DNA of 64,000 nt, from assembly GCA_041740495.1 (NCBI GenBank), contig JBGSLW010000345.1, positions 1,431 to 65,430 on the forward strand, read 5' to 3'. Below, in pieces: positions 21,436 through 58,920 of this stretch (its first letter is position 1; each line of letters starts with the position of its first letter). Under the pieces are notes generated by a model. That model did no database searches and had not been told where the DNA came from. It saw only the letters and a list, made by a program, of their open reading frames with translations. Made by a program: the position numbers and the translations under genes. Origin of the DNA: Pirellulaceae bacterium. Lineage in GTDB: Bacteria; Planctomycetota; Planctomycetia; Pirellulales; Pirellulaceae.

Positions 21436-21477
21436 TGGTCGGTTGGAAGATTGCGTGCCTGGGAGGCTTGGAATACG

Positions 21478-37668: not shown

Positions 37669-37705
37669 CGCACACCACCTCCCTGCAACGTCGCACCCCC
37701 GTCGC

Positions 37706-37765
37706 GCGACTCTCCGAGTCGCGATCCTGCCGCTACCGCTCGCCGTCACGACTCTCCGAGTCGTG
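37706..37765. repeat. two copies of palindrome CGACTC-TCC-GAGTCG (family B) between kdsC and the giant gene
   Basis: GCGACTCTCCGAGTCGC at 37706-37722 and CACGACTCTCCGAGTCGTG at 37747-37765. The same core occurs at 214-234 and 58893-58909. Confidence 0.8.
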
Positions 37766-42121: not shown

Positions 42122-42237
42122 ATCGAGGGTGAGGGGGGCCGCGCCGGAGAGTCCGCCTCACGACTCGATTCCGGTTACCATAATGCGCTCAGACACCATC
42201 CCTTCCATTGGACTCTTTTGCTGAATCGGTGGCCGAT

Positions 42238-44943
42238 ATGCCAACTCCTAATTCACTGAACCGGCTTCGTGGTCTATTCCCCCGCGCTACTTACTTGCTG
42301 CTCTTTTGCCTTACCGCGTCGGCCCAGCAAGTCGGCTACGGTCCCGACCAGATTCAGACGCCCGTCAATCAGGTCCTCACCCCCTTCGGCCAACTGGTGC
42401 AGCTCCCCGGAGTTCGGCCGCAGGCCGTCGCACTTTCGCCCGATGGTGAACTGTTGGTCCTTTCCGGCAAGAGTTCCCAGTTACTGGTATTCGGGTTCGC
42501 CGGCGATGGTTCCGTCGTCGAACGACAGCGGGTTGCATTCCCGGATGAGCAGCAGACCGAACCCGCCGATCCTGCCGTTGCCGTAAGCGCCGACTCGCGA
42601 GCCCAAGTCAGCTACACGGGCCTCATCTTTTCTCCGGACGGCGATCGAATCTACGCCAGCAACGTCAACGGCTCCGTGAAAGTCTTTCGAGTGGACGAGC
42701 AACACCAGGTGCATCCCGCCTACACGATTCCGCTGCCGGCGGCTGGAGCGCCGCGGCGGGAAGCCGAGATCCCGAGCGGACTTTGTCTCACCCCGGACGG
42801 AGATCGTTTGTATGTCTGCGGCAACCTTTCCAATCGACTGCTCGAAATCGAACTGGCCGCGCTTAAGGTCACGCGTACCTTCGATGTTGGTGTGGCCCCC
42901 TACGATGTGAAGATCGTCGGCACACAAGCCTATGTCAGTAACTGGGGTGGCCGTCGCCCTGCCGAGGGAGACTTGACTGGCCCGGCCGGACAAGGCACCA
43001 CCGTCCGCGTCGACCCCACGCGACACATCGCCAGCGAAGGTTCGGTCTCGATCATCGACTTGAGCAGCGGCGACTTGGTGACGGAGCTGGTGACCGGATT
43101 GCACGCCTCCGCCCTGGCGGTCTCGCCTGACGAGAAATATGTCGTTTGTGCCAATGCCGCCAGCGATAACTTGTCGGTGATCGAGGTCGCGACGGCTAAA
43201 ATCACCGAGACGATCTGGACCAAGCCCTCTCCGGCGGACCTGTTCGGCGCGGCGCCTAATGCGCTCGCCTTTGGCGCCGAAAACGACCAGCTGTGGGTCG
43301 CCAACGGCAGCTACAACGCGATTGGCCTGATCGAATTCGAACCCGAAACGAAGGGTGAATCCAAATTGTTGGGCCTGGTGCCGGTCGGCTGGTATCCGGG
43401 AGGCCTACTGTACGACACGCGGCGAAACCAGGTCTGCGCTGTGAACATCAAGGGACTTCCCGACCAAGCCAAATCCGCGCCAACCGGTGGAGAAGGATTC
43501 AACTCGCATCTCTACCAAGGGACGCTTTCGGTCTTTCGCCCGGCGGAGGCCGAAGCCAAACTCGCGGAACTGTCTCAGCAAGTCGCCGACAATATGCGCG
43601 CTCCGGCGATCCAGGCCGCGCTGCTGCCACCCCGAGCCGATGCGGCCCCGAAGCCGATCCCCGAACGAATCGGCGAACCGAGCTCGATCCAACATGTCGT
43701 GTACGTAATCAAGGAAAACCGCACGTACGACCAGGTCTTGGGCAAATTGGAAAAGGGGAGGGGGCACGCCGATTTGTGCATTTTCGATGAACAGATCGCA
43801 CCGAACCAATACAAATTGGTCCGCGAATTCGTACTGCTGGATAACACCTATTGCGCGGGGATCCTCAGCGCCGATGGGCACCAGTGGAGCACCACGGCGA
43901 TGAGCACCGACTACATGGAAAAGAGCTTTGCAGGCTTTCCGCGAAGTTACCCGGACGGCATGGGGGACGACGATGTCGACGCGCTGGCCTATTCGCCCGC
44001 CGGTTTCATTTGGGACAACGCATTGCGGTACAAAAAATCGATTCGCAACTACGGCGAGTTCATGATGCCGCGTGTCAAATGGCGCGATCCGAACAAGAAC
44101 GGGACCCCGACGTTTACCGCCTGCTATAAAACCTGGCGGGGAGAAAGCGACGAAGTCATTTTCGCCAGCGAGCCGGGCATCGAGTCCATCCGACCGTTTT
44201 CGCCGACCGATTACGTCGGTTGGGAAATGGCGGTCCCGGATCAGTACCGTGCCGACTTCATTCTGCGGGAGCTCGCAGAGTTTGAAAAATCAGGTGAGTT
44301 TCCGCAGCTGGTGATCATCTGCCTGCCGAACGACCACACCAGCGGCACCAGCCCTGGTTTTCCGACTCCCGCCGCGTCGATCGCCGACAACGACCTGGCC
44401 TTCGGCCGGATCGTCGACGCGCTCAGCCACAGTCGTTTCTGGCCGCAGATGGCGATCTTCGCGATCGAAGACGACCCGCAAGCGGGCTGGGACCACGTCA
44501 GCGGCTACCGGACCACCGCCTACTGCATCAGCCCATTTGCCAAACGCGGTGCGACGGTCAGCGCATACTACAACACGACGAGCATTCTGCGGACGATTGA
44601 ACAGATTCTCGGTCTGCCGTCGATGAACATCTTCGACGCCAGCGCCACGCCGATGTTCGAGTGCTTCCAAGAAACCCCCGACCTGACACCGTACACGCAC
44701 GTGGCCAACAACGTGCCGCTGGATCAAATGAACCCCAGCCCGCAGAGCCTGCTCGACCCCCAACTGCGAGCCGATGCACTCGCGTCCGCCGAAATGAACT
44801 TCCGCGAAATCGACCGTGCCCCCGAGGACGCGCTCAACCGCATCCTCTGGCGGTCAATGAAAGGGACCGCGGAACCATACCCCGAATGGGCGATCACAGG
44901 GGAGGAGGAGGAAGAAGAGGAAGAAACAGCTGACCGCAGATGA
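42238..44943 (+). CDS. secreted fusion protein: YncE-like beta-propeller + phosphoesterase (PLC/acid phosphatase, PF04185-like) domain, poly-Glu tail
   Basis: ATG at 42238 with signal peptide. Propeller blades are visible (SPDGELLV, SPDGDRIYASN, TPDGDRLYV, SPDEKYVVCAN). The phosphoesterase signature is HVVYVIKENRTYDQVLG with later CLPNDHTSG. The C-terminus reads GEEEEEEEETADRR. Confidence 0.8.
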   Translation: MPTPNSLNRLRGLFPRATYLLLFCLTASAQQVGYGPDQIQTPVNQVLTPFGQLVQLPGVRPQAVALSPDGELLVLSGKSSQLLVFGFAGDGSVVERQRVAFPDEQQTEPADPAVAVSADSRAQVSYTGLIFSPDGDRIYASNVNGSVKVFRVDEQHQVHPAYTIPLPAAGAPRREAEIPSGLCLTPDGDRLYVCGNLSNRLLEIELAALKVTRTFDVGVAPYDVKIVGTQAYVSNWGGRRPAEGDLTGPAGQGTTVRVDPTRHIASEGSVSIIDLSSGDLVTELVTGLHASALAVSPDEKYVVCANAASDNLSVIEVATAKITETIWTKPSPADLFGAAPNALAFGAENDQLWVANGSYNAIGLIEFEPETKGESKLLGLVPVGWYPGGLLYDTRRNQVCAVNIKGLPDQAKSAPTGGEGFNSHLYQGTLSVFRPAEAEAKLAELSQQVADNMRAPAIQAALLPPRADAAPKPIPERIGEPSSIQHVVYVIKENRTYDQVLGKLEKGRGHADLCIFDEQIAPNQYKLVREFVLLDNTYCAGILSADGHQWSTTAMSTDYMEKSFAGFPRSYPDGMGDDDVDALAYSPAGFIWDNALRYKKSIRNYGEFMMPRVKWRDPNKNGTPTFTACYKTWRGESDEVIFASEPGIESIRPFSPTDYVGWEMAVPDQYRADFILRELAEFEKSGEFPQLVIICLPNDHTSGTSPGFPTPAASIADNDLAFGRIVDALSHSRFWPQMAIFAIEDDPQAGWDHVSGYRTTAYCISPFAKRGATVSAYYNTTSILRTIEQILGLPSMNIFDASATPMFECFQETPDLTPYTHVANNVPLDQMNPSPQSLLDPQLRADALASAEMNFREIDRAPEDALNRILWRSMKGTAEPYPEWAITGEEEEEEEETADRR

Positions 44944-45269: not shown

Positions 45270-46493
45270 CTATCCCGCGTGCACTTTGACCGTCTGCCCG
45301 ACATCGTCCAGCATCGAGCGCAGCGTGTCGTAGTCGGGATGCTTCATGCGGATCCAGGCGTTGGCCATGTAGCCGGCTTCGACCCCCGCGGTCGGCGTGC
45401 CGGGCTCGGGAGTGTGCCAGTCGATCAGCCACTCGCCGTAGCGTTCGCGGATGGCATCGAGTCCGCTGTATCCGGTAATCCGACCATCCCGCTGCGGGCG
45501 AAGGGCGATGATCCCGGTGCTGAAGCGGCGCGAGGTCCGCTGGGTCGGTCGACCATGTACGATCGCCGAAGCCCACTCGACATACAAATCGATGTCGTTG
45601 GCAATGTTATAGAGGTCCCAGGCGCGGACTCCCGGCGGCCGGCAGCCGATTTCGGAAAACCGCAGGCCTTTCGGGCCGAAAAACCACTCCATATGCGTTG
45701 CCGCGGTGCCGATCCCGATCGCGGAGTTGACTGTGCGACCGAGCGCTTTCAGCTCGCCATAGGCCGCTGCGCTGTCGACCTGGTTGGTGGTGATGAACTG
45801 CGGGGAAATCCAGCGCGTTCGCATCGCCTCCAGGACATTCGGGTAATAGTGCGAGACGAATTCGTGCACGACCTGCCCGCCGATGGTGAGCGTATCATAA
45901 AAGCCCTCGTGCCCCTCGATGAACTCTTCCACCGCGACCTCGCCGCCACGCCCGACATGGGATGCATCGAGGGCTGAATGCAGCTGCGGGTCGTCGTCGA
46001 CGCGAGTCGCCCCCGAGGCCCCCGCGCCCGCCCGCGGTTTGACGATCAGCGGATACCCGACTCGCCGGGAAAACTCGAAGATCGCGTCGCGGTCGCCGCT
46101 TCCTAGCGTCTGCGCACAAGGAACGCCGTGCCGCCGCAAGTGTTCCTTCATCAGCGGCTTGTCCCGGCAGAGCGTCGCCGTCTCGATCGAGATGCCTGGA
46201 ATCGTACAAGCCGCCCGCACCTCGGCGACCGGCAAGATATGCGCTTCGACCGTCGCCTCCAGTCGATCGACGTAGATTTTGCTCTGAATAAATCGGACGG
46301 CCTGAGTCATCGCCCCCACATCGCAGACACTGGGGACTTGGATGTAGTCCAATAGCCAGTCCTGCAGCTGGCCGTCGAGCTGCTCTTTGGGCGACTCGCC
46401 AATCGCCACCACCGTCGCCCCGACTTGTTTCAGCCCGCGCACAAACTCCCGCTGATTCGCGGGAAACGAGGGTTCGACGAAAATCACCTGCAT
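45270..46493 (-). CDS. ATP-grasp domain ligase, paralog 1
   Basis: ATG at 46493 (MQVIFVEPSFP). Motifs are GYPLIVKPRAGAGASG, EEFIEGHEGFYD, THMEWF and SEIGCRPPG. Length 407 aa. Confidence 0.85.
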   Translation of the reverse strand: MQVIFVEPSFPANQREFVRGLKQVGATVVAIGESPKEQLDGQLQDWLLDYIQVPSVCDVGAMTQAVRFIQSKIYVDRLEATVEAHILPVAEVRAACTIPGISIETATLCRDKPLMKEHLRRHGVPCAQTLGSGDRDAIFEFSRRVGYPLIVKPRAGAGASGATRVDDDPQLHSALDASHVGRGGEVAVEEFIEGHEGFYDTLTIGGQVVHEFVSHYYPNVLEAMRTRWISPQFITTNQVDSAAAYGELKALGRTVNSAIGIGTAATHMEWFFGPKGLRFSEIGCRPPGVRAWDLYNIANDIDLYVEWASAIVHGRPTQRTSRRFSTGIIALRPQRDGRITGYSGLDAIRERYGEWLIDWHTPEPGTPTAGVEAGYMANAWIRMKHPDYDTLRSMLDDVGQTVKVHAG

Positions 46494-46612
46494 CGCTGCG
46501 TTCCCAAGAAAGGTAGGTTCGATTATCGTTACCGCTTGTGCGACGGGCAATGGTGTTCATGATGGATTTGGCCCGTCATAGATCTGGTGGCCTTTTCTCC
46601 CGTTGTTTCCCC

Positions 46613-46720
46613 GTACTCGTACTCGTACTCGTACTCGTACTCGTACTCAGTGAAACGGTACTCGTAATCGATTGCGGCTTGAGGCGGGAATTACGCGAGT
46701 ACGAGTACGAGTAGGAGTAC
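46613..46720. repeat. (GTACTC)x6 hexamer run facing an inverted (GAGTAC)x4 run in the divergent ATP-grasp intergenic region
   Basis: GTACTC x6 at 46613-46648, one more copy at 46658-46663, and GAGTACGAGTACGAGTAGGAGTAC at 46697-46720. Confidence 0.9.
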
Positions 46721-46736
46721 GGATCAATAAACATCT

Positions 46737-47957
46737 ATGAAAAATGTCATCTTCGTCGCGCCGTATTTCTTAGACGCCACCGAGCGGTTTATCGCCGCGG
46801 CGGCGAGTTTACCGGGTGTGCGGCTCGGTCTGGTCAGTTGCGACGCGGAAGCGAAACTGAAACCGGGAATCCGCTCGAGGTTGGCCTGTCATTACGCGGT
46901 GCCGTCGCTCGAGACCGATGACCTGCTCCGCGGCGTCCTGGCGCTCCGCCAGCAATTGGGAGGCGCCGATTGCCTTTTGGGGATGCTGGAGCAAATCCAA
47001 GTCGGCCTGGGCGAGATTCGCGATCGACTGGGGATCCCGGGCATGGGGGCCGAAGTCGCCCACAACTTCCGCGACAAATCGCGAATGAAGAATGTCCTGC
47101 GAAATGCCGGGATCCCGTGCGCACGGCATCGCCTGGCGGCGGATGAAGCGACGGCGCTGGAATTCTCTCGCGAGGTCGGCTTTCCCATCGTGGTCAAACC
47201 CCCCGATGGGGCCGGGGCCAAAGGAACTTTTCGCTGCGAGAACGTCGACCAATTGCTGGGGGCCGTTCGCAGCCTGCGTCCCACGCCGCAGCAGCCCGCG
47301 TTGTTAGAAGAGTTTATCACGGGGATCGAACATTCGTATGACAGCGTCTTCGTCGGAGGTCGCTCGGTCTGGTATTCCATTTCGCACTATTTTCCCGGCC
47401 CCCTGGAAGTCCTCCGCGAGCCGTGGATTCAGTGGTGCGTGATCATTCCGCGCGAGTCACTGCATCCTCGCTACGAAGCGATTGTCGAGTGCGGGCCGCG
47501 GGCGATCGCCGCGCTCGGCTTGCGGACCGGCCTCAGTCACCTGGAATGGTTCCGTCGTCCGGACGGTTCGATCGCAGTTTCCGAAGTCGGCGCCCGCCCC
47601 CCCGGCGCGCAATTCACGTCGCTGCTTTCCTACGCCCACGACTTCGATTTCTACCAAGGCTGGGCCGAGCTGCTGATCTTTGAACGGTTTGCGCCCCCCG
47701 AACGCAAGTACGCTTGCGGGGCGGCGTATCTCCGCGGAATGGGGCAGGGGAGAATCGCTCACGTGCACGGAGTCGCCGAGGTCGCGGCGGAAATGGGCTC
47801 GGTGATCGTAGAAGCCAAGCTGCCACAAACCGGACAAAACCCCTCCAGCTCGTACGAAGGGGATGGGTACATCATCGTGCGCCACCCGGAAACTCGCGTC
47901 GTTGAGGAGGCGCTGGAGAAGATCATCCAGCGAATACGGGTCGAAGTCGCGGGGTGA
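46737..47957 (+). CDS. ATP-grasp domain ligase, paralog 2
   Basis: MKNVIFVAPYF start. Motifs are GFPIVVKPPDGAGAKG, EEFITGIEHSYD, SHLEWF and SEVGARPPG. Length 406 aa. Confidence 0.85.
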   Translation: MKNVIFVAPYFLDATERFIAAAASLPGVRLGLVSCDAEAKLKPGIRSRLACHYAVPSLETDDLLRGVLALRQQLGGADCLLGMLEQIQVGLGEIRDRLGIPGMGAEVAHNFRDKSRMKNVLRNAGIPCARHRLAADEATALEFSREVGFPIVVKPPDGAGAKGTFRCENVDQLLGAVRSLRPTPQQPALLEEFITGIEHSYDSVFVGGRSVWYSISHYFPGPLEVLREPWIQWCVIIPRESLHPRYEAIVECGPRAIAALGLRTGLSHLEWFRRPDGSIAVSEVGARPPGAQFTSLLSYAHDFDFYQGWAELLIFERFAPPERKYACGAAYLRGMGQGRIAHVHGVAEVAAEMGSVIVEAKLPQTGQNPSSSYEGDGYIIVRHPETRVVEEALEKIIQRIRVEVAG

Positions 47958-48148
47958 AATCGCTCCTCCAACTTCATTGCGATATGGTGTACACACATAC
48001 ACTATGTTGACGTTGGTTCCACTTTCACAATGCCCCTCGGAATAATGCAGTATTCCTTTTCACCCTCCCGCGGGGAGGATCGGACGCACGATGCGGCCGG
48101 GGAGGGCCAATCTTGCGCTCCGTGGCGACAGCATTTTGCAGCCGCTCT

Positions 48149-48195
48149 CCGCCCGCATCCTTGCGGGCGGCTCTCCCCTCGAAGACGGGGGAGAG
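48149..48195. repeat. two adjacent GC-rich hairpins (second one family C-like) between ATP-grasp paralogs 2 and 3
   Basis: CCGCCCGCA-tcct-TGCGGGCGG (48149-48170), then CTCTCCCC-tcgaagac-GGGGGAGAG (48171-48195). Confidence 0.7.
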
Positions 48196-48290
48196 TGAAT
48201 TTCGGTCCGTGGATTATAGTAGTATGCAGTGAACGTTGAGCCTCCGGGACAAGACTTACGGCAGCGCTTTCTCTATCAACTCGAATCTCC

Positions 48291-49508
48291 ATGAACGTCT
48301 TGATGTTTTCTCCCGGCTTTCCTTACGAGCAGCCGTTTTTCACGCGCGGGTTGCGGCGGCAGGGGGCGAACGTGATCGGCGTGGGGGATCAGCCCGCGCA
48401 CGACGTGTCCCCGATGGCCCGCGAAGCCTTGGCCGATTACTGGCAGATCGGCTCGTTCAGCGACGAAGAACAAGTGCTTGAGCAAATCGTCGACCGCGCA
48501 CGGCATGTGCGGATCGACCAGGTCGAATCGACGTGGGAGCCGCTGATGACCCTCGCCGCCAAGCTGCGGGCCCGCTTGGGACTCGCTGGGATGACGCTCG
48601 AGGAGACGATCCCCTTCCGCGATAAGGAAGTGATGAAACGGATGCTCGATCGGCACGGGATCCGGACTCCGCGGCATGCCAGTTCGACCAGCGCCGACGG
48701 AGTCCGCCAGGCCGCCGCGGCGATCGGTTATCCGATCTGCGTCAAGCCGATTGCGGGGGCGGGGTCCGCCGACACGTTCCGGGTGGAGAACGAGCGCGAA
48801 CTAGAAGACGTGCTGCCGCAGCTGCGGCATGTCCCCGAGGTGAGCGTGGAGGAGTTCATCGAGGGGGAGGAGTATACGTTCGACACAATCTGCATCGACG
48901 GGGAGATCCGCTACTACAACATTTCCTGGTACCGTCCCAATCCCCTGGTGCAACGGCAACATCAATGGATCAGCCCGCAGACGATGGCGTTGCGGAACCC
49001 GGACGATCCGAAGCTCGCGGGGGGGCGGGCCTTGGGTGCGGCGGTCCTCAAGGCTCTGGGGTTTCGCACCGGCTTCACCCATATGGAGTGGTTCCGCAAG
49101 TCGAACGGCGAAGCGGTCTTCGGGGAAATCGCCGCGCGACCCCCTGGGGCCAGTTCGGTCGATATCATGAACTTCGCCAGCGACGTCGACTTGTACGAGG
49201 GCTGGGCCGAGGCGGTCCTGCATCGCCGGTTCAGCATACCGCTGGAGCGAAAATACAACGCCGCGCATATCTTCAAACGGGCCCAGGGGGAGGGGCGGGT
49301 CCAGCGGATCACCGGCCTGGAGAGCTTGCTGGCCGATTATGGCCCCCAGATTTGCACGATCGACCTGCTGCCGATCGGGGCCCCCCGGCGCAACTGGAAG
49401 CAAACCCTCCGCTCCGATGGGATGGTGATCATTCGCCATCCCGACTTGGCCACCGCCTGCGAAATTGCGGATCAGGTCGGGATCCGCTTGCAGATGTATG
49501 CGAGTTAG
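48291..49508 (+). CDS. ATP-grasp domain ligase, paralog 3
   Basis: MNVLMFSPGFP start. Motifs are GYPICVKPIAGAGSAD, EEFIEGEEYTFD, THMEWF and GEIAARPPG. Length 405 aa. Confidence 0.85.
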   Translation: MNVLMFSPGFPYEQPFFTRGLRRQGANVIGVGDQPAHDVSPMAREALADYWQIGSFSDEEQVLEQIVDRARHVRIDQVESTWEPLMTLAAKLRARLGLAGMTLEETIPFRDKEVMKRMLDRHGIRTPRHASSTSADGVRQAAAAIGYPICVKPIAGAGSADTFRVENERELEDVLPQLRHVPEVSVEEFIEGEEYTFDTICIDGEIRYYNISWYRPNPLVQRQHQWISPQTMALRNPDDPKLAGGRALGAAVLKALGFRTGFTHMEWFRKSNGEAVFGEIAARPPGASSVDIMNFASDVDLYEGWAEAVLHRRFSIPLERKYNAAHIFKRAQGEGRVQRITGLESLLADYGPQICTIDLLPIGAPRRNWKQTLRSDGMVIIRHPDLATACEIADQVGIRLQMYAS

Positions 49509-49543
49509 AGCCGATCTCAAAACTCGCTGATCCCCACACCCTG

Positions 49544-49570
49544 CCCTCTCCCCCGCAGCGGGGGAGAGGG
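49544..49570 (+). terminator. family C hairpin 36 nt after ATP-grasp paralog 3 (terminator-like, no clear U-tract)
   Basis: CCCTCTCCCCCGC-a-GCGGGGGAGAGGG. Confidence 0.35.
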
Positions 49571-49724
49571 TTATGGGATAGGCTCTTTCCCGGTACGCAA
49601 ACGCATACACTTGCAACCTTCACCTTGAGTAACGATGATCTTCTAAAGGCCGATTTGCGATCAACTTTCGCGTTGAATTGAAAACGGTTTCGATTTGATT
49701 TCTCTGTCCTCGTCCCGGAGAGCC

Positions 49725-50417
49725 ATGTCGAACAACACGTCAAGTCGTTTGAAACGTGGGATCCGACACGCTATCGTTCTGGTCGCCATGGTATTGGTGT
49801 CGCCGATGATTCTCATGGCGCAACTGGAGAAATGGCTTCAATGGGGCGAGTGGTGGTTTGTCGCCTTTTCCGAAATGTTGAGCCAAATCCCCGGCCGAAC
49901 CGGCGCTGCTTTGCGCTTGGGTTACTATCGCGGAACATTGAACCGATGCGGGTTCAATGTCTACTTTGGCTTTGGAACCAAAATCAACCACCGAACGGCG
50001 GAAATTGCCCAAGGTGTGGTCATCGGGTCACATTGCAATATCGGAACAGTAACGCTGGGCGAAGGGGTCTTGGTCGGATCGCGCGTTTGTCTTTTGAGTG
50101 GGGGTCGGCAACACGACCACACGGGAGACAATGAAAGGCTGGAGCACGGCGCACCCTATTTTGTCAGAATTCATATTGGCCCGCGGACTTGGCTGGGCGA
50201 GGGAGCCATCGTGATGGCCGATGTCGGCGGTCGGAGCACCGTCGCGGCAGGCAGCGTGGTCTTTCGGCCGATTCCTGAAGGCGTCATGGCCATGGGGAAC
50301 CCCGCCCGAGTTGTTTCGCGAGATTTCTCCGTGCCCGCCATTCCGAAAGACCGGGCGGACGGTCAGCCGATTCCGTCCATCGTGGGAGCCGTGTCTCCAA
50401 AGATCGATTCACCCTGA
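49725..50417 (+). CDS. membrane-associated hexapeptide-repeat (LbH, WcaF/MAT-like) acyltransferase
   Basis: ATG at 49725. An N-terminal hydrophobic segment AIVLVAMVLVSPMILM is followed by left-handed beta-helix hexapeptide repeats (GVVIGSHCNIGTVTLGEGVLVGSRVCLL...IGPRTWLGEGAIVMADVGGRSTVAAGSVV). Confidence 0.8.
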   Translation: MSNNTSSRLKRGIRHAIVLVAMVLVSPMILMAQLEKWLQWGEWWFVAFSEMLSQIPGRTGAALRLGYYRGTLNRCGFNVYFGFGTKINHRTAEIAQGVVIGSHCNIGTVTLGEGVLVGSRVCLLSGGRQHDHTGDNERLEHGAPYFVRIHIGPRTWLGEGAIVMADVGGRSTVAAGSVVFRPIPEGVMAMGNPARVVSRDFSVPAIPKDRADGQPIPSIVGAVSPKIDSP

Positions 50418-50432
50418 TTGGCAAGTGGAAAA

Positions 50433-50566
50433 GTAAGCGTTCACGGGGCGAACAACCGAATGGTTCACTTGGAGGGGGTCAGACCCATTTTTCGGAGTTA
50501 GCGTACCTTGCAGATTGCCCTTTCAAGCCGAAACATGCGTCAGACCCCCGGCGCGTGAACGGTTAC
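50433..50566. repeat. 134-bp inverted repeat, left copy (IR-L)
   Basis: The reverse complement of 56801-56934 matches 50433-50566 with about 5 mismatches by hand alignment. It ends 12 nt before the ATG at 50579. Confidence 0.9.
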
Positions 50567-50578
50567 AGTGGAATACCC

Positions 50579-51577
50579 ATGGACAAGACTCGACTGAAAC
50601 CGATTCGATACGGCCGCCCCGTATTAGGATTGTTAACCGTAGTGACGTTGTTGCTGGTCCTGCAAATCCCCATCGTTCCGAAAGAGCCTCCTATGTCACC
50701 CAAGTCCAATCGCGTTCCCGACTGGAGCAATTATTCCAGCGCGTCGCCGGGCGGCCGACTCCGGCTGCTTTTCATCCACCATTCCTGTGGCGGTCAATGG
50801 CTGGCGCCGCTGGGAACCAATCAGGGCCGCCAGAGTATTTACGAAAGTTCGGACAAGGGCGGAGGCTTGCGTCCGGCATTGGAGGAACAAGGCTACGAAA
50901 TCCATGAGGCCTCGTATGGAAGCCGCGTCGGCGATCGGACCGATCTGTTTGATTGGTGGCCGAAATTCCGAGATCAGATGCCGCAAATTCTCCAATGTGC
51001 CCACCAAGACGAGGTCTACTCCAACGGCGAGTCGAATCAGATTGTGGTCTTCAAATCGTGTTTTCCGAACAGCTTTTTCGTGGGGGAGGGAAAGTCACCT
51101 GGGAATCCGCTTGGTCCTGAATTGACTGTGGCGAATGCCCAGGCGGCGTATCGGGAGCTGTTGCCCCTGTTCGAAAACCAACCGCAGACGCTGTTCGTCG
51201 TGGTTACGGCCCCGCCGTTGGTCCTCGAGTCGATTCCGCTGTACAAATCGCTTGCCAAATGGCTTTTGGGTCGGCCCAGTCTCAGCCGTTCCGGGGTTTT
51301 CGCCCGGAAATTCAACAACTGGCTCAAGGATCCCGAGACCGGTTGGTTGGCAAATTATTCCCAGAAAAATGTAGCCGTTTTCGACTATTTCGACGTTTTG
51401 ACGGAGGATGGGAAATCCAACTTCTTGCGTTTCCCGTCCGGCCCAAGAAAAATGGACAATCACCCGAGTTCGGCCGGCAACCAACGTGCCACCGAAGCGT
51501 TTATTCCTTTCCTGAACCAAGCCGTCCGACGATCGGGACTGGTTCAACTGCCTCATCTTCAACCCTCACCCCAGTAA
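50579..51577 (+). CDS. hypothetical N-terminally anchored protein (alpha/beta-fold-like, no named motif recognised)
   Basis: ATG at 50579 (MDKTRLKPIRYGRPVLGLLTVVTLLLVL, TM). It has strand-end motifs LLFIHHSCGG, IVVFKSCFPN and LFVVVTAPPL. Sampled lines look somewhat lower in GC than the neighbours. Confidence 0.6.
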   Translation: MDKTRLKPIRYGRPVLGLLTVVTLLLVLQIPIVPKEPPMSPKSNRVPDWSNYSSASPGGRLRLLFIHHSCGGQWLAPLGTNQGRQSIYESSDKGGGLRPALEEQGYEIHEASYGSRVGDRTDLFDWWPKFRDQMPQILQCAHQDEVYSNGESNQIVVFKSCFPNSFFVGEGKSPGNPLGPELTVANAQAAYRELLPLFENQPQTLFVVVTAPPLVLESIPLYKSLAKWLLGRPSLSRSGVFARKFNNWLKDPETGWLANYSQKNVAVFDYFDVLTEDGKSNFLRFPSGPRKMDNHPSSAGNQRATEAFIPFLNQAVRRSGLVQLPHLQPSPQ

Positions 51578-51791
51578 GTCATGTCGGTTGGATATCGATA
51601 GCGCCGAACGCAATTGCGATCGGAATCGGATCCCTTGTCTCGTGGTGCGTCTCGGCCGATGGAGGCCTGAATGCACACCGCGATTCGATCAGGCGATCTC
51701 CGGCACACGGATCGAGCCGTAACATCTTTTCCCGCTTTCCCTTCCAGCTGCCTCACCTCTCAATTCGCCTCGTCATCGGTAGGAGTAATTC

Positions 51792-52046
51792 GTGGATCCA
51801 TGCTCGCGCATTCGACAATTTTTGACCGAGAATTTCTTGTACGGCGCCGGCGAAACACTGACGGATGACAACGCATCGCTGGTGCAATCCGGGATCGTGG
51901 ACTCGACCGGTATCCTGGAACTCGTCGCGTTCGTGGAAGAATCGTTCGAGATGCGGGTCCGCGACGAAGAGATCATTCCAGCCAACTTCGATTCGGTGAA
52001 CCAGATTCTCATGTTCGTCCAGCGCAAATCCGCCGTAACCGCCTAA
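51792..52046 (+). CDS. acyl/peptidyl carrier protein (DltC-like)
   Basis: GTG start 6 nt after AGGAG. The 84-aa protein has the phosphopantetheine-site motif GIVDSTGILELV. Confidence 0.8.
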   Translation: MDPCSRIRQFLTENFLYGAGETLTDDNASLVQSGIVDSTGILELVAFVEESFEMRVRDEEIIPANFDSVNQILMFVQRKSAVTA

Positions 52047-52078
52047 GCGCTTTTGGGCAATCCGGCCGGAAGGACGAT

Positions 52079-53614
52079 ATGCAGCTGGTCCAGGACTATC
52101 TCGAGCAAAGTGCCGAACGGAACCCAGACAAGATCGCTCTGGTCTGCGATGGCCAGCGGTATTCCTACGCAGCGATCGACACGCTGGCGAATCGGCTGGC
52201 GAACGTGCTGCTCGCTCATGGCGTTGACCGTGGGGATCGCGTGGTTCTCTTGCTTCCCAATGGCCTGGAATTGGCGATTGGCATATTCGGCGTGTTGAAG
52301 GCGGGCGCCGTTTTTGTGGTGCTCCACAGCTCCATGAAATTTGACAAAGTCCAGCGGATCGCGGCGGACTGCGGAGCGGTGGCGATGTTGGCCTCGACCA
52401 GGGACCGTGCGTCGGCGGCCTGGATCAAGGATAACGTCCCCTCGTTGAAGCGGGTGATGTTGATGGACGATTCGGGACAACCCTCGGGGCCCGACGACCC
52501 GAGGTTTCTCCGCTGGACCGATCTGTCAATAGCGGCGTCGTCGGAACGTCCGCACCGCAAAACGATCGATCGAGATTTGGCTTTTTTGGTCTATACCTCG
52601 GGGAGCAGTGGCGTCGCCAAGGGGGTGATGTCGGCGCATGCCAACGTGACCTTCGCGGTGGAGTCGATAACGACGTATCTCGAAAACGTCGCGGACGACG
52701 TCCTCCTCTGCGCGCTGCCGATGTCGTTCAGCTACGGGCTGTACCAGCTGTTCATGATGTTGCAGGTAGGCGCCACCCTGGTGCTCGAACGATCCTTTGC
52801 GTTTCCAGCCCATTTTCTCCAGTTGATGGAGCGGGAGGGGGTGACGGGACTGCCCGGAGTTCCCACCTTGTTCAGTATCTTACTGGAAACGGACACCTCG
52901 CCCTACGATTGCAGCCGATTGCGGTACATCACGAATGCCGGGGCCGCATTGAATACGACTCTGATCTCGCGGCTGCGCGAACGGTTTCCGCGCGCGCAAC
53001 TCTATTCGATGTACGGATTGACGGAAACCAAGCGGACGTTGTACTTGCCCCCTGCCGAACTCGATCGCCGGCCCGAATCGGTCGGAATCGCCATCCCGGG
53101 GACCGAAGTCTGGCTGGTCGACGAGGACGATCAACGGTTGGGAGCCAACCAAGTCGGAGAGCTGGTAGTACGCGGCGGCCATGTGATGCGAGGATATTGG
53201 AACGATCCGGTCGGCACCGCGCGTCGTTTTCGGCCCGGTCCGCTCCCCGGGGAATTTGTGTGTTATAGCGGGGACCTGTTCCGCCGGGATGACGAAGGTT
53301 TCTATTACTTCGTCAGCCGCAAAGACGACATCCTCAAATGCCGTGGAGAAAAAGTTGCGCCGAAGGAAATCGAGGAAGTCCTGTGCCGCATGGCGGACGT
53401 CTTCGAAGCGGCGGTGATCGGCGTCCCCGACCCGACACTCGGACAGGCGATCAAGGCCTTTGTTGTCCGCCGGACAGCTGCCTTGACGGACAATGACGTG
53501 CTGCGGCATTGTCGGGCGCATCTCGAAGATTTCATGATCCCGCGCGAAATTGTGTTCGTGACGGAACTCCCCAAAAACGCCAACGGCAAGATTCAAAAGT
53601 CACTTCTGCAGTGA
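52079..53614 (+). CDS. ANL-superfamily adenylating enzyme (AMP-dependent acyl-CoA/acyl-carrier-protein ligase)
   Basis: Motifs are LVYTSGSSGVAKGV (A3), YGLTET (A5), YSGDLFRRDDEGFYYFVSRKDD (A7/A8) and PKNANGKIQK (A10 Lys). Confidence 0.9.
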   Translation: MQLVQDYLEQSAERNPDKIALVCDGQRYSYAAIDTLANRLANVLLAHGVDRGDRVVLLLPNGLELAIGIFGVLKAGAVFVVLHSSMKFDKVQRIAADCGAVAMLASTRDRASAAWIKDNVPSLKRVMLMDDSGQPSGPDDPRFLRWTDLSIAASSERPHRKTIDRDLAFLVYTSGSSGVAKGVMSAHANVTFAVESITTYLENVADDVLLCALPMSFSYGLYQLFMMLQVGATLVLERSFAFPAHFLQLMEREGVTGLPGVPTLFSILLETDTSPYDCSRLRYITNAGAALNTTLISRLRERFPRAQLYSMYGLTETKRTLYLPPAELDRRPESVGIAIPGTEVWLVDEDDQRLGANQVGELVVRGGHVMRGYWNDPVGTARRFRPGPLPGEFVCYSGDLFRRDDEGFYYFVSRKDDILKCRGEKVAPKEIEEVLCRMADVFEAAVIGVPDPTLGQAIKAFVVRRTAALTDNDVLRHCRAHLEDFMIPREIVFVTELPKNANGKIQKSLLQ

Positions 53615-53623
53615 TGCGATCGA

Positions 53624-55675
53624 ATGTGTGGACTCGTCGGTATGCTTGATCCCCGGCGCGCGACGTCGGACCCCGGCGGCGCCATGCGGCGGATGCTTGG
53701 TTCGATCCAGCATCGTGGACCCGATCAGTGCGGCTTGTACTTGTACGCCAGCGGCGCCTTGCAGGTCGCATTGGCACATGCTCGGTTGAGTATTATCGAC
53801 ATCGACGGTGGGCAACAGCCGCTTGGCAACCGGGACGGCGCCAAATGGATTGTCTTCAACGGCGAAGTTTTCAACTTTCGGGAACTTCGACGCGACTTGG
53901 AGAAGCTCGGCCATCGCTTTGCCACCTCCACCGATACGGAGGTGGTGTTGCATCTCTACGAACGATATGGAGCGGCCTGTCTGGAGCTGCTCAATGGGCA
54001 ATTTGCCCTGGCGATCTGGGACGAGTCCGCCCGGCGCTTGTTCTTGGCTCGCGATCCGCAGGGGATCTTGCCGCTGTATTACACCTGGCGAAATGGGCAG
54101 CTGTTGTTCGCTTCGGAAATCAAAGCGTTGCTGGCCCACCCGCATGTCGAAGCGGCGATCGACCCGATTGGATTGGATCAAGTGTTTTCCTATTGGGGGC
54201 CGTTGGCGCCTCGCACTTGCTTTACCGACGTCCGAGCACTGCCGCCGGGGCATCGCGCTACGGTTTCCGCCGACGGCCAAATGCAGGTTGAACGTTACTG
54301 GTCCCTGTCGTTTCCGGGGCAAGGGGATGAGTCGCGGCTGGACCTCCGGGAGGCCGCGGAGGAATTGCACGCGTTGTTAGACGATGCCACCAAAATCCGC
54401 CTGCGAGCCGATGTGACGGTGGGCGCCTATTTGAGCGGGGGACTCGATTCTTCCGCGGTCACGGCCCTGGCCCGGCGAGCTGTCGAGGAACGGCTTGAGA
54501 CCTTTTCTGTTGCGTTTGCGGACGAGTCGTTCGATGAGAGCAAATTCCAACGGGCGACGGCCGATTTCTTGGGAACTCGGCACCGCGTGGTGACTTGTGA
54601 CTCAAACGATATTGGAGCGGTGTTTCCGGAGGTGGTTTGGCACGCGGAGGCGGCGCTGCTGCGAACCGCGCCGGCCCCGCTATTCTTGTTGTCAAGGCTC
54701 GTGCGGGATTCGGGGATCAAAGTCGTCTTGACCGGCGAAGGATCCGACGAGTTCCTAGGGGGCTACAACATTTTCAAGGAAGCCAAGGTCCGGCGATTCT
54801 GGGCGCGGCAGCCTGAATCGGCGTGGCGGCCCCGCTTGCTGGAACGGCTCTATCCCTACATACCGCAGTTGAGCGCCGCGGGGCTTCCCTATCTCAAGTC
54901 ATTTTTTGGCCAGGACTTGGATGCGTCCGGACCCTACTTTTCACACCAGGTCCGTTGGAACGGCACGTCGCGCCTCAAGCGGATCTTTTCCGCAGAATTC
55001 CGCGAGACGATCCGTAACGAATTCGCGACTTCCGGAGCTGGCCGCGAACCGTCGTTCATTGGCCCGCTGGTGCCACCGGAGTTTGAAGGCTGGAGTGGAC
55101 TGGCGCGGGCCCAGTTTCTGGAGGCGACGGTTTTTCTGCCCGACTACTTGCTCTCGTCTCAGGGAGATCGGATGTTGATGGCCCACGGGATCGAAGGGCG
55201 ATTCCCATTTCTGGATCCGCGCGTGATCTCCTTTTGCAACCAATTATCGCCGCACCTGAAACTGTGCGGACTCAACGAAAAATTCGTACTAAAACAGGCG
55301 ATAGGCCGCGAGTTGCCGACCAGCGTGGGCGAACGGACCAAACGCCCGTTCCGCGCGCCCATCCAAGCAGCCTTTGTTCGCAACGGGCAATGGGTGGAAT
55401 GGGCCGCCGATTTGTTATCCGCGCCGGCCATTCAATCGAGCGGCTATTTTGAGCCGAAAGCCGTTGCGGGTTTGACCCACAAGGCGACTCGCGCCCAATC
55501 GCTCAGCGAAATGGACGGGATGGCCTTGGTCGGTGTGATTTCGACACAATTGCTGCATTCAATGTTTGTGCAGCGCGTGCGGCAGCCCAGCAACTTCCAC
55601 CGTGTGCACGAGTGGAAAGTTGTGGACCACTCGCACGAGCCCTCGGCGGCAACTCAAGAACGATTTTTGCAATGA
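53624..55675 (+). CDS. asparagine synthetase B-family glutamine amidotransferase
   Basis: N-terminal nucleophile MCGLVG (Cys2), Ntn-GATase domain, PP-loop SGGLDSS. Length 683 aa. Confidence 0.9.
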   Translation: MCGLVGMLDPRRATSDPGGAMRRMLGSIQHRGPDQCGLYLYASGALQVALAHARLSIIDIDGGQQPLGNRDGAKWIVFNGEVFNFRELRRDLEKLGHRFATSTDTEVVLHLYERYGAACLELLNGQFALAIWDESARRLFLARDPQGILPLYYTWRNGQLLFASEIKALLAHPHVEAAIDPIGLDQVFSYWGPLAPRTCFTDVRALPPGHRATVSADGQMQVERYWSLSFPGQGDESRLDLREAAEELHALLDDATKIRLRADVTVGAYLSGGLDSSAVTALARRAVEERLETFSVAFADESFDESKFQRATADFLGTRHRVVTCDSNDIGAVFPEVVWHAEAALLRTAPAPLFLLSRLVRDSGIKVVLTGEGSDEFLGGYNIFKEAKVRRFWARQPESAWRPRLLERLYPYIPQLSAAGLPYLKSFFGQDLDASGPYFSHQVRWNGTSRLKRIFSAEFRETIRNEFATSGAGREPSFIGPLVPPEFEGWSGLARAQFLEATVFLPDYLLSSQGDRMLMAHGIEGRFPFLDPRVISFCNQLSPHLKLCGLNEKFVLKQAIGRELPTSVGERTKRPFRAPIQAAFVRNGQWVEWAADLLSAPAIQSSGYFEPKAVAGLTHKATRAQSLSEMDGMALVGVISTQLLHSMFVQRVRQPSNFHRVHEWKVVDHSHEPSAATQERFLQ

Positions 55676-55689
55676 AGGAGAACAGAGCG

Positions 55690-56661
55690 ATGCCCGAATT
55701 CCACCGCGACATTCTACGGATCGACCCGAAAGGCGAGGTCGATCGGATTGTCGATCGCCTGCGGCGCCAGGTATTGGAGACCCTGCATCGTGAAGGCGCC
55801 GTCTTGGGTGTGAGCGGCGGGGTGGACTCGGCCGTCACCTTGGCTTTGTGTGTGCGGGCGTTCGCACCCCAACAGATCGTGGCGTTGTTGTTACCGGAAA
55901 TCGATTCGAGCCCGGATAGCGTTCGCCTCGGTCGCTCCGTTTGCCGGCAGTTCGGGATCGCGCCGATTGTCGAGAACCTCACCGCGGCACTCTACGGATT
56001 CGGTTGTTACCAACGGCGCGATGAAGCCGTACGGGCCTTGATCCCCGACTACGACAGCACCCACCGGCTGAAGATCACGCTCCCCCCATCCACCTTGGAT
56101 CAGGGAAGCCTCAATGTCTACAGCGTGGTGGCCGTCAGTCCCGAGGGGATCGAGGAGCGAAAGCGGCTGCGGGCGAAAGAGCTTCGCCAAATCGTGGCCG
56201 CGACGAATTTCAAACAACGTTCTCGAGCTGCGATGTTGTTTTACTACGCCGATCTCCGAAACTTCGCAGTGATCGGCACGCCGCCCAAGAACGAGCACGA
56301 CATGGGGTTCTTCGTCAAGTTCGGCGACGGCGCGCTGGATGTCAAGCCGCTAGGGCATTTGTACAAAAGCCAAGTCTACCAACTCGCCGAGTATTTGGAG
56401 GTTCCGGCCGAGATCCGCAGCCGCCCGCCGACTTCCGATACGTACAGCGCGGGGAGTTCACAGGAGGAGTTTTTTTTCAGGCTGCCGTGTCAGCAAATGG
56501 ACTTGCTCTGGTACGGCTGGGAAAACAATATATCGCCGACGGTCGTCGCACGCGAAATGGAACTCTCCGAAGCACAGGTCCAACACGCTTTTCAGGACTT
56601 CGCGCGGCGAACGCAAACCACCGCCTACCTCCGCACGCCGCCATTGGATTGCAGAGAATGA
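55690..56661 (+). CDS. NAD+ synthetase-family (NadE-like) PP-loop ATP pyrophosphatase
   Basis: ATG at 55690, 9 nt after AAGGAG, with PP-loop GVSGGVDSAVT. It lies 15 nt after the AsnB-family stop. Confidence 0.8.
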   Translation: MPEFHRDILRIDPKGEVDRIVDRLRRQVLETLHREGAVLGVSGGVDSAVTLALCVRAFAPQQIVALLLPEIDSSPDSVRLGRSVCRQFGIAPIVENLTAALYGFGCYQRRDEAVRALIPDYDSTHRLKITLPPSTLDQGSLNVYSVVAVSPEGIEERKRLRAKELRQIVAATNFKQRSRAAMLFYYADLRNFAVIGTPPKNEHDMGFFVKFGDGALDVKPLGHLYKSQVYQLAEYLEVPAEIRSRPPTSDTYSAGSSQEEFFFRLPCQQMDLLWYGWENNISPTVVAREMELSEAQVQHAFQDFARRTQTTAYLRTPPLDCRE

Positions 56662-56800
56662 AGCCACACGCATTCCGGCCGGGAGGGAAGTAAATTCACT
56701 GCTGGGCCGTGAGGCCCCGAGCGCGGTGGTTATGACTCGGGACGCACCACGTGCCAGCGGAAAAACGCACGGCACTTTCGCACGAATAGCCCGCCGTACG

Positions 56801-56934
56801 GTAACCGTTCACGCGCCGGGGGTCTGACGCATTTTTCGGCTTGAAAGGGGAATCTGCAAGGTACGCCAACTCCGAAAAATGGGTCTGCCCCCCTCCAAGT
56901 GAACCATTCGGTTGTTCGCCCCATGAACGCTTAC
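56801..56934. repeat. 134-bp inverted repeat, right copy (IR-R)
   Basis: See IR-L. It lies between the converging ends of the NadE-like gene (stop 56661) and the TlpA-like gene (stop 56992). Confidence 0.9.
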
Positions 56935-56991
56935 TGACGAACAATACCTCGTTCGACGGTATCTCCGTCCGGAAAAAAATGCGCGACGGTA

Positions 56992-58230: not shown

Positions 58231-58358
58231 GTTTGACTCCTGCAAAATTGTGGGCACAGACAGTCCTAGCGGTTGGCAACCACCTTCAAGCAGCGCCGAA
58301 AGACTAGGTAGAGTCTATCCTAGAAACGGTGCACCAGTCGAACCAAGGCTGCGCTTGT

Positions 58359-58739
58359 CTATTGGCTGACCGGTGGATCGTGGGCCAGGGCGACGACGAT
58401 TTTCCAGCCGGCGGGGGTGAGACGGAGCGCGTAGCGGAAGCCGAATCGGTTGATTTCCTCGCCTGCGTGATTGCGGCGGATGAACATCCCTTGCAGCGAA
58501 CCGAGGTTCGCAGCCAGCAGTTCCACGCGGAGGTCGACGATTTCGGTCCGCGCATAACCTTGGGATCGCGCTTGTTCGATCAGCTGGGCGGCGATCTGCC
58601 GGGCTTGTTCCGGCGTGGCCGCGACAGTTTCCCCCCACGGAGCGAGAAACAGGCAAGGCGCGTGGTAGAACTCGGCGACGCGGTCCGCGTCTAGCGCTTC
58701 GAAGGCGCGGACGTAGTCCCGGAGCGTTTGTTCCGCCAC
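58359..58739 (-). CDS. NTF2/SnoaL-like fold protein (hypothetical)
   Basis: LRDYVRAFEALDADRVAEFYHAPCLF...GFRYALRLTPAGWKIVVALAH fits an NTF2-like cone. There is no internal ATG. The GTG at 58739 is my guess; the ORF is open to a TTG at 58868. Confidence 0.5.
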   Translation of the reverse strand: MAEQTLRDYVRAFEALDADRVAEFYHAPCLFLAPWGETVAATPEQARQIAAQLIEQARSQGYARTEIVDLRVELLAANLGSLQGMFIRRNHAGEEINRFGFRYALRLTPAGWKIVVALAHDPPVSQ

Positions 58740-58892
58740 GGCCAGTGGAGACGGTGGATGCGCTGCAGGTGGATTCAAGGGGGCGAACTTCCGGTAAGAG
58801 CCTGTGCTTCTTGAGCGTAGCAACAGCGACCAACCGAGGACAGCGCGTCCGCGCAGTGGGGCGTGCAACGTGCCGTGGGAGGCAGAAGAAGT

Positions 58893-58909
58893 TCGACTCG
58901 GAGAGTCGA
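58893..58909. repeat. family B palindrome TCGACTC-GGA-GAGTCGA just 3' of rpsG
   Basis: Read directly. It has the same CGACTC-N3-GAGTCG core as at 214 and 37706/37747. Confidence 0.8.
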
Positions 58910-58920
58910 GCGACTTTGCT

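Follow-up and report, generated by a model that had tools for sequence, protein, structure and literature searches.

Nine neighbouring carboxylate- and acyl-handling genes in a Pirellulaceae contig very probably form two separate modules, an ATP-grasp ligase trio and a carrier-dependent cassette with a NadE paralog

The 64,000-nucleotide stretch of DNA analysed here (the window; part of contig JBGSLW010000345.1 in the Pirellulaceae bacterium assembly GCA_041740495.1) carries at positions 45270-56661 nine genes, g1 to g9, which an earlier sequence-only reading had taken as one ribosome-independent ligase pathway. We found that the genes of this block very probably belong to two neighbouring modules that are independent of each other, and that a recent 9.4-kb insertion brought these modules together. 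Module A (g1-g3) is a trio of ATP-grasp ligases. Module B has as its core a carrier protein, an ANL adenylating enzyme, an AsnB-type amidotransferase and a NadE-type enzyme, and it comprises g4-g9 in this genome; we read it as a probable carrier-protein-dependent tailoring cassette of polysaccharide loci with an unusual component, a NadE paralog. Linkage of the genes within each module was far beyond chance, and linkage between the modules was not conserved. Taken as a whole, the best explanation, which we hold with moderate confidence, is the juxtaposition of the ligase trio and a carrier-dependent acyl-decoration cassette, and not one pathway.

The gene inventory was made from an open reading frame (ORF) listing with translation and from Pfam and NCBIfam profile scans of the products. 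The features of the region and their predicted products are as follows.

45270-46493, minus strand: g1, ATP-grasp ligase, putatively of the L-amino-acid-ligase type (Pfam ATP-grasp families), Module A; the ORF extends to 46550 and the likely start gives 407 aa
46737-47957, plus strand: g2, ATP-grasp ligase paralog of 406 aa (Pfam/NCBIfam scans), Module A
48291-49508, plus strand: g3, ATP-grasp ligase paralog of 405 aa, the most conserved of Module A
49509-58921: 9.4-kb lineage-specific segment with g4-g9, g10 and one unannotated ORF; no counterpart in two close relatives
49725-50417, plus strand: g4, acyltransferase of the left-handed beta-helix (hexapeptide) type, anchored by an N-terminal transmembrane segment (PF00132); outside the inverted repeats
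50432-50569: left arm of a 138-nt inverted repeat, an imperfect palindrome, 10 nt ahead of the g5 start
50579-51577, plus strand: g5, putative membrane-anchored SGNH-like hydrolase/acyltransferase (homolog-family residues, AlphaFold2, Foldseek)
51792-52046, plus strand: g6, stand-alone carrier protein of 84 aa with the phosphopantetheine Ser in GIVDSTG
52079-53614, plus strand: g7, ANL adenylating enzyme (PF00501, 302 bits; PF13193), the presumed loader of g6
53624-55675, plus strand: g8, AsnB-type glutamine amidotransferase of 683 aa with the Cys2 nucleophile and an SGGLDSS PP-loop (PF00733, PF13537, PF13522)
55690-56661, plus strand: g9, NadE-family PP-loop ATP pyrophosphatase (SGGVDS; NF002048) with an inserted beta segment
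56798-56935: right arm of the 138-nt inverted repeat, within the convergent g9/g10 spacer
56992-58257, minus strand: g10, secreted TlpA/ResA-like thioredoxin with TPR repeats (PF08534, PF00578)

The three ATP-grasp proteins of about 405 aa, the GIVDSTG carrier, the ANL enzyme, the AsnB-type protein with its MCGLVG and SGGLDSS motifs, the SGGVDS protein and the hexapeptide acyltransferase were all found where the sequence-only reading had placed them. The start of g9 was measured at 14 nt past the stop of g8, where 15 nt had been given, and the one gene left as hypothetical and outside acyl handling, g5, appears to encode a membrane-anchored SGNH-like protein. The gene g1 is divergent from g2-g3. 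No condensation, polyketide synthase, glycosyltransferase or transporter domain was found in the block by the Pfam and NCBIfam scans, as had been claimed. An Rfam scan gave no match in the block, and promoter and terminator counts were not above those in shuffled sequence.

The separation of the two modules was evident when the window was compared by blastn with two close relatives, L006 and L175. The g3 gene was 95% identical in amino-acid sequence over the aligned 79% and approximately 90% identical in nucleotide sequence in L006, and 97% and 89% identical, respectively, in L175. The synteny of phosphoesterase gene, trio and rpsG-rpsL-rpoC was kept in both relatives, and g1 was syntenic with L006. 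Homology of the window to L006/L175 ended at 49501/49508 and restarted at 58922, and the distance from g3 to rpsG was 1.4 kb in L006 and 435 bp in L175. Since positions 49509-58921 have no counterpart in either relative, this segment is lineage-specific. Conservation of the adjacency in relatives, which the sequence-only reading had named as its own check, breaks down at the g3/g4 junction. The GC content also differed between the gene sets, with 0.63 for the trio, 0.55-0.57 for g4-g6 and 0.60 for g7-g9. In L175, the short spacer between g3 and rpsG (1740-2170) was found to be made of two to three tandem diverged copies of an approximately 130-nt segment, unlike the content of the window there.

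Within the lineage-specific segment, the arms of the 138-nt inverted repeat are 96% complementary, have 6.2 kb between them and bracket exactly g5-g9. The repeat arm is a hairpin-forming imperfect palindrome (RNA fold of the left arm, -53.5 kcal/mol, z -2.7). Only two copies of it were found in the window and none among the fetched loci, and comparable inverted repeats were absent from six other cassette loci. No tRNA was found around the segment, no transposase or integrase domain in the scanned ORFs and no target-site duplication at the ends of the inverted repeats. The repeats may mark the two limits of a mobile cassette, or they may be a pair of miniature inverted-repeat transposable elements or an inversion substrate. 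The g10 gene lies inside the lineage-specific segment; a homolog of it was present in just 1 cassette locus, which places it outside the conserved cassette.

Loci from other genomes were collected with g9 as the anchor for Module B and with g3 as the anchor for Module A. ATP-grasp homologs were present within 10 kb in 0/61 of the NadE-anchored cassette loci, and homologs of the ANL, AsnB, NadE or carrier genes, or of any other gene of g4-g9, in 0/29 of the trio loci from metagenomes with a length of 8 kb or more. These counts bear on the proposal that all nine genes form a single ribosome-independent ligase pathway for one oligo-amide or peptide-like metabolite. In favor of that proposal, the genes are contiguous, g2-g9 lie on the same strand with short spacers, every product handles acyl or carboxyl groups, ATP-grasp plus amidotransferase logic is known in dapdiamide-type pathways, and weak matches to DdaF were obtained (18-27 bits vs a cut-off of 840). 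We nevertheless regard a single pathway as highly improbable, for g4-g10 are missing from the corresponding position in both close relatives, trio and cassette never co-occurred in the loci counted above, GC content differs between the gene sets, the inverted repeats enclose g5-g9 only, and the genes that recur beside one module differ from those beside the other. The sequence-only reading was thus right that six carboxylate-activating enzymes are concentrated here, but they make up two conserved three-enzyme modules side by side, and its idea of one pathway with a triplicated ATP-grasp was not borne out. A dense run of similar chemistries can arise by the accident of a recent insertion and not from a pathway.

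The conservation of the Module B cassette was found to be extensive. A g9-anchored scan of species-representative genomes gave at least 539 confirmed matches, and the best 80 loci, which were analysed, span at least 10 phyla: Chloroflexota, Planctomycetota, Acidobacteriota, Verrucomicrobiota, Ignavibacteriota/Bacteroidota, Calditrichota, Gemmatimonadota, Cyanobacteria, Proteobacteria and Zhuqueibacterota. Counts were made on the 61 loci in which the sequence upstream of the NadE-like gene extended for 5 kb or more, with a threshold of at least 40% identity for AsnB and ANL homologs. An AsnB-like gene was present in 61/61 of these loci, a g6-like carrier in 59/61 and a g7-like ANL gene in 49/61, with more divergent ANL genes in several others. 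The AsnB and NadE genes were separated by a median of 96 nt, measured between tblastn matches. In most phyla the genes were arranged as carrier-ANL-AsnB-NadE; in Ignavibacteriota/Bacteroidota the order was carrier-AsnB-ANL-NadE.

When the ORFs of the cassette loci were clustered and the recurrent clusters annotated, the context of the cassette in other genomes was mostly that of polysaccharide loci. A small hexapeptide acyltransferase was present in 21 loci and directly adjoined the cassette in about 14 of them. Further recurrent neighbours were GT1/GT4, Acyl_transf_3, Wzz/BY-kinase, GT2, Bac_transf, PMT_2, Wzy_C, DegT aminotransferase, NDP-sugar epimerase/dehydratase, sulfotransferase, FemAB-like and GHMP kinase genes, and at least one recurrent polysaccharide family was present in 38/50 cassette loci of at least 15 kb. 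Orthologs of g5, with 57-62% identity, lie within the cassette of other Planctomycetota, and members of the g5 family were also present in O-antigen-like loci without a carrier. One Thermoguttaceae locus had the order hydrolase-2-like, hydrolase-1-like, carrier, g5-like, ANL, FemAB-like, deacetylase, AsnB and NadE. In a Planctomycetaceae locus (L026), two opposed g5-family paralogs, at 6649-7479 on the plus strand and 11014-11850 on the minus strand, flank the carrier-AsnB-NadE genes, and the ANL gene nearby is divergent (38% identity).

The products of Module B were then assigned one by one from profile, structure and motif matches. The carrier g6 gave weak NCBIfam matches to acyl carrier proteins (ACP), all under cut-off, and its best matches in the PDB were the type II peptidyl carrier proteins PigG and PltL, together with DltC. 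The PDB matches of g7 included the adenylation domain (A-domain) of the nonribosomal peptide synthetase (NRPS) LgrA, malonyl-CoA synthetase (4fuq) and 3wvn, which we take to be VinN, the loader of 3-methylaspartate onto a stand-alone ACP. For g8, the score against TIGR01536 was above the cut-off (496.8 vs 267.1), and that against NF006949, the model for AsnB proper, was below it (325.7 vs 499); g8 is also about 130 aa longer than the latter model. The g9 protein passed both NF002048 (431.5 vs 313) and TIGR00552 (139 vs 63.65), and 7497 homologs of it were found. The AlphaFold2 model of g9 had NH3-dependent NAD synthetases as its top Foldseek matches (E about 1e-12, 20-23% identity) and contained an insertion of approximately 45 residues at roughly residues 115-160. 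We therefore place g9 in the NadE family by its sequence and predicted fold; from its context, a function in NAD synthesis is doubtful.

Of the two putative transfer enzymes, g4 has a single N-terminal hydrophobic segment (residues 12-36). The g5 protein itself gave no Pfam hit, and a few of the 1621 homologs of its family matched the GDSL/SGNH Pfam models PF00657, PF13472 or PF19040. The residues H75, H76, S77, G79 and G80 (HHSxGG), N194 and D301-x-H303 were invariant in the family. The AlphaFold2 model of g5 had a pLDDT of 90.6, and its Foldseek matches were weak, with a CE2 SGNH esterase (E 1.8e-4, TM about 0.37) and the SGNH domain of the lipopolysaccharide O-acetyltransferase OafB, so that g5 is probably a membrane-anchored SGNH-like protein.

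These findings are consistent with a role of Module B in supplying a carrier-bound acyl group for the decoration of a glycan, a role to which we give an even chance. The amide decoration of a glycan, one of several products suggested in the sequence-only reading, is then the best reading for g4-g9 but not for all nine genes. In the scheme that we propose, g7 would adenylate a carboxylic acid and thioesterify it to holo-g6; the likeliest substrate is a di- or tri-carboxylate. The g8 enzyme, with glutamine-derived ammonia, and the g9 enzyme, with ammonia, would each turn a remaining carboxylate into a carboxamide via an acyl-adenylate; alternatively, g9 may process the first amide further. Acyltransferases, generally of the beta-helix, SGNH or membrane type and here the beta-helix g4 and the SGNH-like g5, would then place this amidated group on a sugar residue of a polysaccharide at the cell surface. 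Precedents are the AsnB homolog OxyD, which acts on an activated dicarboxylate, and the PP-loop enzyme QueC, which converts an acid to an amide and then to a nitrile. This specific double-amidation scheme is less likely than not. Direct observation covers the domain identities, the separability and conservation of the two modules and the polysaccharide surroundings of the cassette elsewhere; the substrates, the order of the steps and the final acceptor are all what we infer from protein families and neighbours.

Several observations weigh against the view of the block as a ligase trio next to a glycan-decorating cassette. The genes that recur beside Module A elsewhere (clusters c1, c3, c4 and c5 and glycogen genes, described below) are absent from the window. 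The best PDB matches of g4 were coenzyme A-dependent sugar O-acetyltransferases of the LacA/Maa type, and g4, which the inverted repeats do not enclose, has no orthology to the hexapeptide enzymes of other cassette loci. In the A4 motif of g7, the Asp that binds the alpha-amino group is replaced by Ser, as read from a manual alignment and not derived by a tool. The larger ORFs of the 64-kb window yielded no gene for a glycosyltransferase, flippase, polymerase or exosortase, so the acceptor glycan is inferred from other genomes only. Recurrent neighbours in seven to eight cassette loci were an NRPS-like Condensation-PP-binding-Thioesterase protein and a methyltransferase. Finally, g9 passes an NCBIfam cut-off named for NAD(+) synthase and keeps the sequence GFFVKFGDG, which resembles what we take to be the canonical NadE motif, FFTKYGDG, and on these two grounds nicotinic acid adenine dinucleotide (NaAD) may be its true substrate.

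The last point leads to the alternative that g8 and g9 are a housekeeping asparagine synthetase and an ammonia-dependent NAD synthetase beside an acyl-carrier operon, linked by co-regulation of nitrogen assimilation and not by shared chemistry. The passing scores of g8 against TIGR01536 and of g9 against NF002048 and TIGR00552 agree with it, as do the NadE P-loop and catalytic Glu and Asp motifs kept in g9 and the match of its fold to NadE. In contrast, the NadE-like gene was accompanied by an AsnB-like gene at every one of the 61 loci and by a carrier at all but two of them, across at least 10 phyla, and since so specific a neighbourhood is not maintained around housekeeping genes, this role is disfavoured. 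Moreover, g8 misses NF006949 and exceeds its length, close relatives are without g8 and g9 at this site, and the insertion in g9 falls in the region that corresponds to the one with which canonical NadE, as in the structure from B. subtilis, holds the adenylyl half of NaAD across its dimer. A housekeeping role of the pair is thus distinctly unlikely.

A further alternative is that the product of Module B is a free small molecule or is lipopeptide-like, with the amidated acyl-carrier intermediate condensed and released by NRPS-like or hydrolase partners. The loci with the Condensation-PP-binding-Thioesterase protein and methyltransferase fit this alternative, as does the proximity of g6 to type II peptidyl carrier proteins and of g7 to NRPS A-domains, and the lack of glycosyltransferases among the larger ORFs of the window is in line with it. 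On the other hand, polysaccharide loci made up about three quarters of the larger loci (the 38/50 above), hexapeptide sugar acyltransferases were the commonest direct neighbour, g5-family proteins occur in O-antigen-like loci even where a carrier is lacking, and the Pfam scan found no condensation domain or thioesterase in this window. A sugar-transferase gene was also present in at least one of the seven to eight loci with the NRPS-like protein. We consider a free product rather unlikely, and the decoration of a surface polysaccharide is the putative function we retain for Module B.

Among known systems, the cassette resembles the gene set associated with exosortase A (XrtA)/PEP-CTERM, which consists of a ligase (TIGR03098), a carrier, a pyridoxal phosphate (PLP)-dependent decarboxylase (TIGR03099), two hydrolases (TIGR03100 and TIGR03101) and an amidotransferase (TIGR03108). 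In both, an ANL ligase occurs in exopolysaccharide (EPS) loci together with a carrier that stands alone and an amidotransferase of the AsnB type, TIGR03098 and TIGR03108 were the top NCBIfam matches of g7 and g8, respectively, and the Thermoguttaceae cassette is preceded by hydrolase-2-like and hydrolase-1-like genes. The link of an AMP-ligase, ACP and AsnB trio to exosortase/EPS loci, drawn in the sequence-only reading, is supported by these matches and by the homologous cassettes in polysaccharide loci. However, g7 scored 466 bits vs the TIGR03098 cut-off of 592.35, g8 scored 395.4 vs 816.9 for TIGR03108, and the Thermoguttaceae ligase ortholog, at 514.5, was also under the cut-off. Neither g1-g10 nor the 20 larger ORFs of the first 45 kb (1-45 kb), where small ORFs were not exhaustively checked, included a PLP decarboxylase, exosortase or PEP-CTERM gene. 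Moreover, a NadE-family enzyme is present in the cassette and none in the XrtA set, the models of which are typed 'hypoth_equivalog' and which is itself biochemically uncharacterised. Membership in the XrtA-associated set was rejected, as every family cut-off was missed.

The Dlt system consists of the ANL enzyme DltA, the carrier DltC, the MBOAT protein DltB and the SGNH-like DltD. As in Dlt, an ANL enzyme would load a small stand-alone carrier, to which DltC is weakly similar, and a membrane-anchored SGNH-like protein would aid transfer to an extracytoplasmic polymer. In contrast to Dlt, no MBOAT gene is present in the block and g7 probably takes no alpha-amino acid, whereas Dlt lacks amidotransferases; membership was rejected on the score of the DltC model NF003464 (17.5 vs 68) and the missing MBOAT. 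AsnB homologs of the OxyD type form malonamyl starter units by amidating the free carboxylate of an activated dicarboxylate. In Vibrio cholerae O1, RfbK-O are the carrier, ligase and acyltransferase genes for N-tetronyl perosamine, in which a carrier, a ligase and a hexapeptide transferase supply the acyl group of the O-antigen. Neither of these two parallels has a NadE-type enzyme, and no membership at the level of sequence was shown for the cassette. With NadE itself, g9 shares the SGGxDS PP-loop, the GT..NE...GFF.K.GDG motif, the fold and passing NCBIfam scores, but it differs in its 20-23% identity to solved NadE, in the approximately 45-residue insertion and in its obligate synteny with AsnB-like and carrier genes. 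The ornithine-lipid pathway of planctomycetes, suggested by the best ACP match of g6, employs the GH3-like OlsH, the alpha/beta-hydrolase OlsI and a cognate ACP (PMC12493201). It was rejected for g6, which scored 44.1 vs 130 against NF052616, and no GH3-like or alpha/beta-hydrolase gene is present in the block.

For Module A, g1, g2 and g3 were 30-33% identical in pairwise comparisons, and the ATP-grasp motifs VKPxxGAG, EEFI, HxEWF and E..RPPG were kept in all three. The best PDB match of each was the L-amino acid ligase 4wd3 (E 5.5e-12, 2.4e-14 and 7e-19 for g1, g2 and g3, respectively), with low best scores of 48-71 bits, and the scores of the ATP-grasp proteins against PF18603 (LAL_C2; 22.6 vs 29.4) and PF18130 (ATPgrasp_N; 25.7 vs 27) were both under the cut-off. 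An identity as PurK, PurT, Ddl or biotin carboxylase was rejected, with best scores of 15-40 bits vs cut-offs of 243-740; PurK, PurT and Ddl were the identities that the sequence-only reading had named as telling against it, and their NCBIfam cut-offs are missed by a wide margin. By sequence comparison, g1-g3 are three anciently diverged paralogs, putatively of the L-amino-acid-ligase type, and the core of a widely conserved ATP-grasp system. The spacer between g2 and g3 (47958-48290, 333 nt) gave no alignment to L006, although both flanking genes align at approximately 90%, and an antisense 96-aa ORF in it (48002-48292) looks spurious.

Homologs of g3 numbered 7808, and orthologs with 58-70% identity were found in Planctomycetota, Acidobacteriota and Eisenbacteria. 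In the loci examined, g2 homologs lie directly upstream of the g3 ortholog, and in all contexts examined g3 was accompanied by two other ATP-grasp genes and never by ANL, AsnB or NadE genes. A g3-anchored metagenome scan gave 80 loci, of which the 29 with at least 8 kb were used for counts; all three ATP-grasp genes were present in 22/29. Partner genes were counted in 33 trio loci of at least 8 kb (the 29 metagenome loci and four fetched earlier), after the ORF clusters c2, c8 and c10, antisense ORFs of GC-rich loci, had been discarded as spurious. A 386-aa PF00756 esterase with an Enterochelin_N/CBM-like N-terminus (c1) was present in 24/33 loci, a 311-aa protein with weak S51 similarity (c3) and a 255-aa PF00756 esterase (c4) in 22/33 each, and a divergent fourth ATP-grasp gene (c5) in 17/33. 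The glgA gene was near the trio in 12/33 loci and any glycogen gene in 15/33. Elsewhere the trio was seen as part of an approximately seven-gene system, sometimes with GCS2 included (loci L092-L171, L002, L003, L005 and L007), and glgA, glgB, glgC, glgP or malQ was adjacent to this system in about 45% of loci.

The products of g1-g3 probably act together as acyl-phosphate-forming ligases. The linkage to glycogen genes would, speculatively, suggest a storage-related role for Module A, and its product may be a small peptide or an ester or amide adduct tied to storage metabolism, which the linked esterases and the S51-like protein could hydrolyse. The L-amino acid ligases RizA (4wd3), BL00235 (3vot) and BacD (3vmm) are the best solved relatives of g1-g3, with about 405-470 aa and the same ATP-grasp architecture. 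In contrast to them, g1-g3 form a conserved paralog trio with esterase, S51-like and glycogen-gene partners, and we know of no such trio with these partners for L-amino acid ligases. Weak ATP-grasp similarity to the G-domain of the cyanophycin synthetase CphA (30-40 bits) was found, but the Mur-ligase domain is lacking and the scores are far under the cut-offs of 850-877. The S51-like protein encoded in the extended trio operon elsewhere recalls cyanophycinase (S51), and no S51-like gene is present in the window.

A full-text literature search found no description of either module. Putting both together, a tentative proposal, to which we give slightly less than an even chance, is that the cassette is an undescribed unit of many phyla in which a NadE-family enzyme, recruited from NAD synthesis, acts with an AsnB homolog on a carrier-tethered acid and yields an amide-rich acyl group (a diamide, amidine or nitrile) on a surface polysaccharide, and that the trio separately represents an approximately seven-gene, glycogen-linked system that could make or modify a storage compound. 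If the reading of the cassette is right, proteins named 'NAD(+) synthase' by NF002048 (the 7497 relatives of g9) and their 'asparagine synthase' neighbours have been wrongly placed in central metabolism. Such proteins would then be markers of a glycan-tailoring chemistry that is widespread but unstudied, in phyla that include Planctomycetota, Chloroflexota, Acidobacteriota and Ignavibacteriota, and action of a PP-loop enzyme on a substrate bound to a carrier would be a novelty. This would bear on the reconstruction of NAD and asparagine metabolism in metagenome-assembled genomes, on EPS and biofilm chemistry and on enzyme discovery. The ATP-grasp trio is a second, independent lead, with three strongly conserved ligase paralogs beside glycogen genes.

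The remainder of the window is housekeeping in character, with cyclophilins, a formate-dehydrogenase/NuoF-like pair, sigma-70, EF-G, PepF and rpoC. Two tandem paralogs of approximately 485 aa (1097-2548 and 2570-4030, plus strand) each have a C-terminal cyclophilin and a long N-terminal part without a Pfam match. Two large ORFs on the minus strand, at 34318-37749 (1143 aa) and 20632-22932 (766 aa), had no Pfam match at E <=1e-4; the latter overlaps a Ser/Thr kinase ORF on the opposite strand and may be spurious. The phosphoesterase gene upstream of the trio (42208-44943, plus strand), the synteny of which is kept in L006, encodes a 911-aa secreted protein with a beta-propeller (lactonase/YNCE-like), a C-terminal PF04185 phosphoesterase and a poly-Glu tail at the end. 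The sole Rfam match in the window was an Acido-Lenti-1 small RNA (RF01687) at 11486-11531 on the plus strand, with 40.8 bits vs a gathering score of 37.

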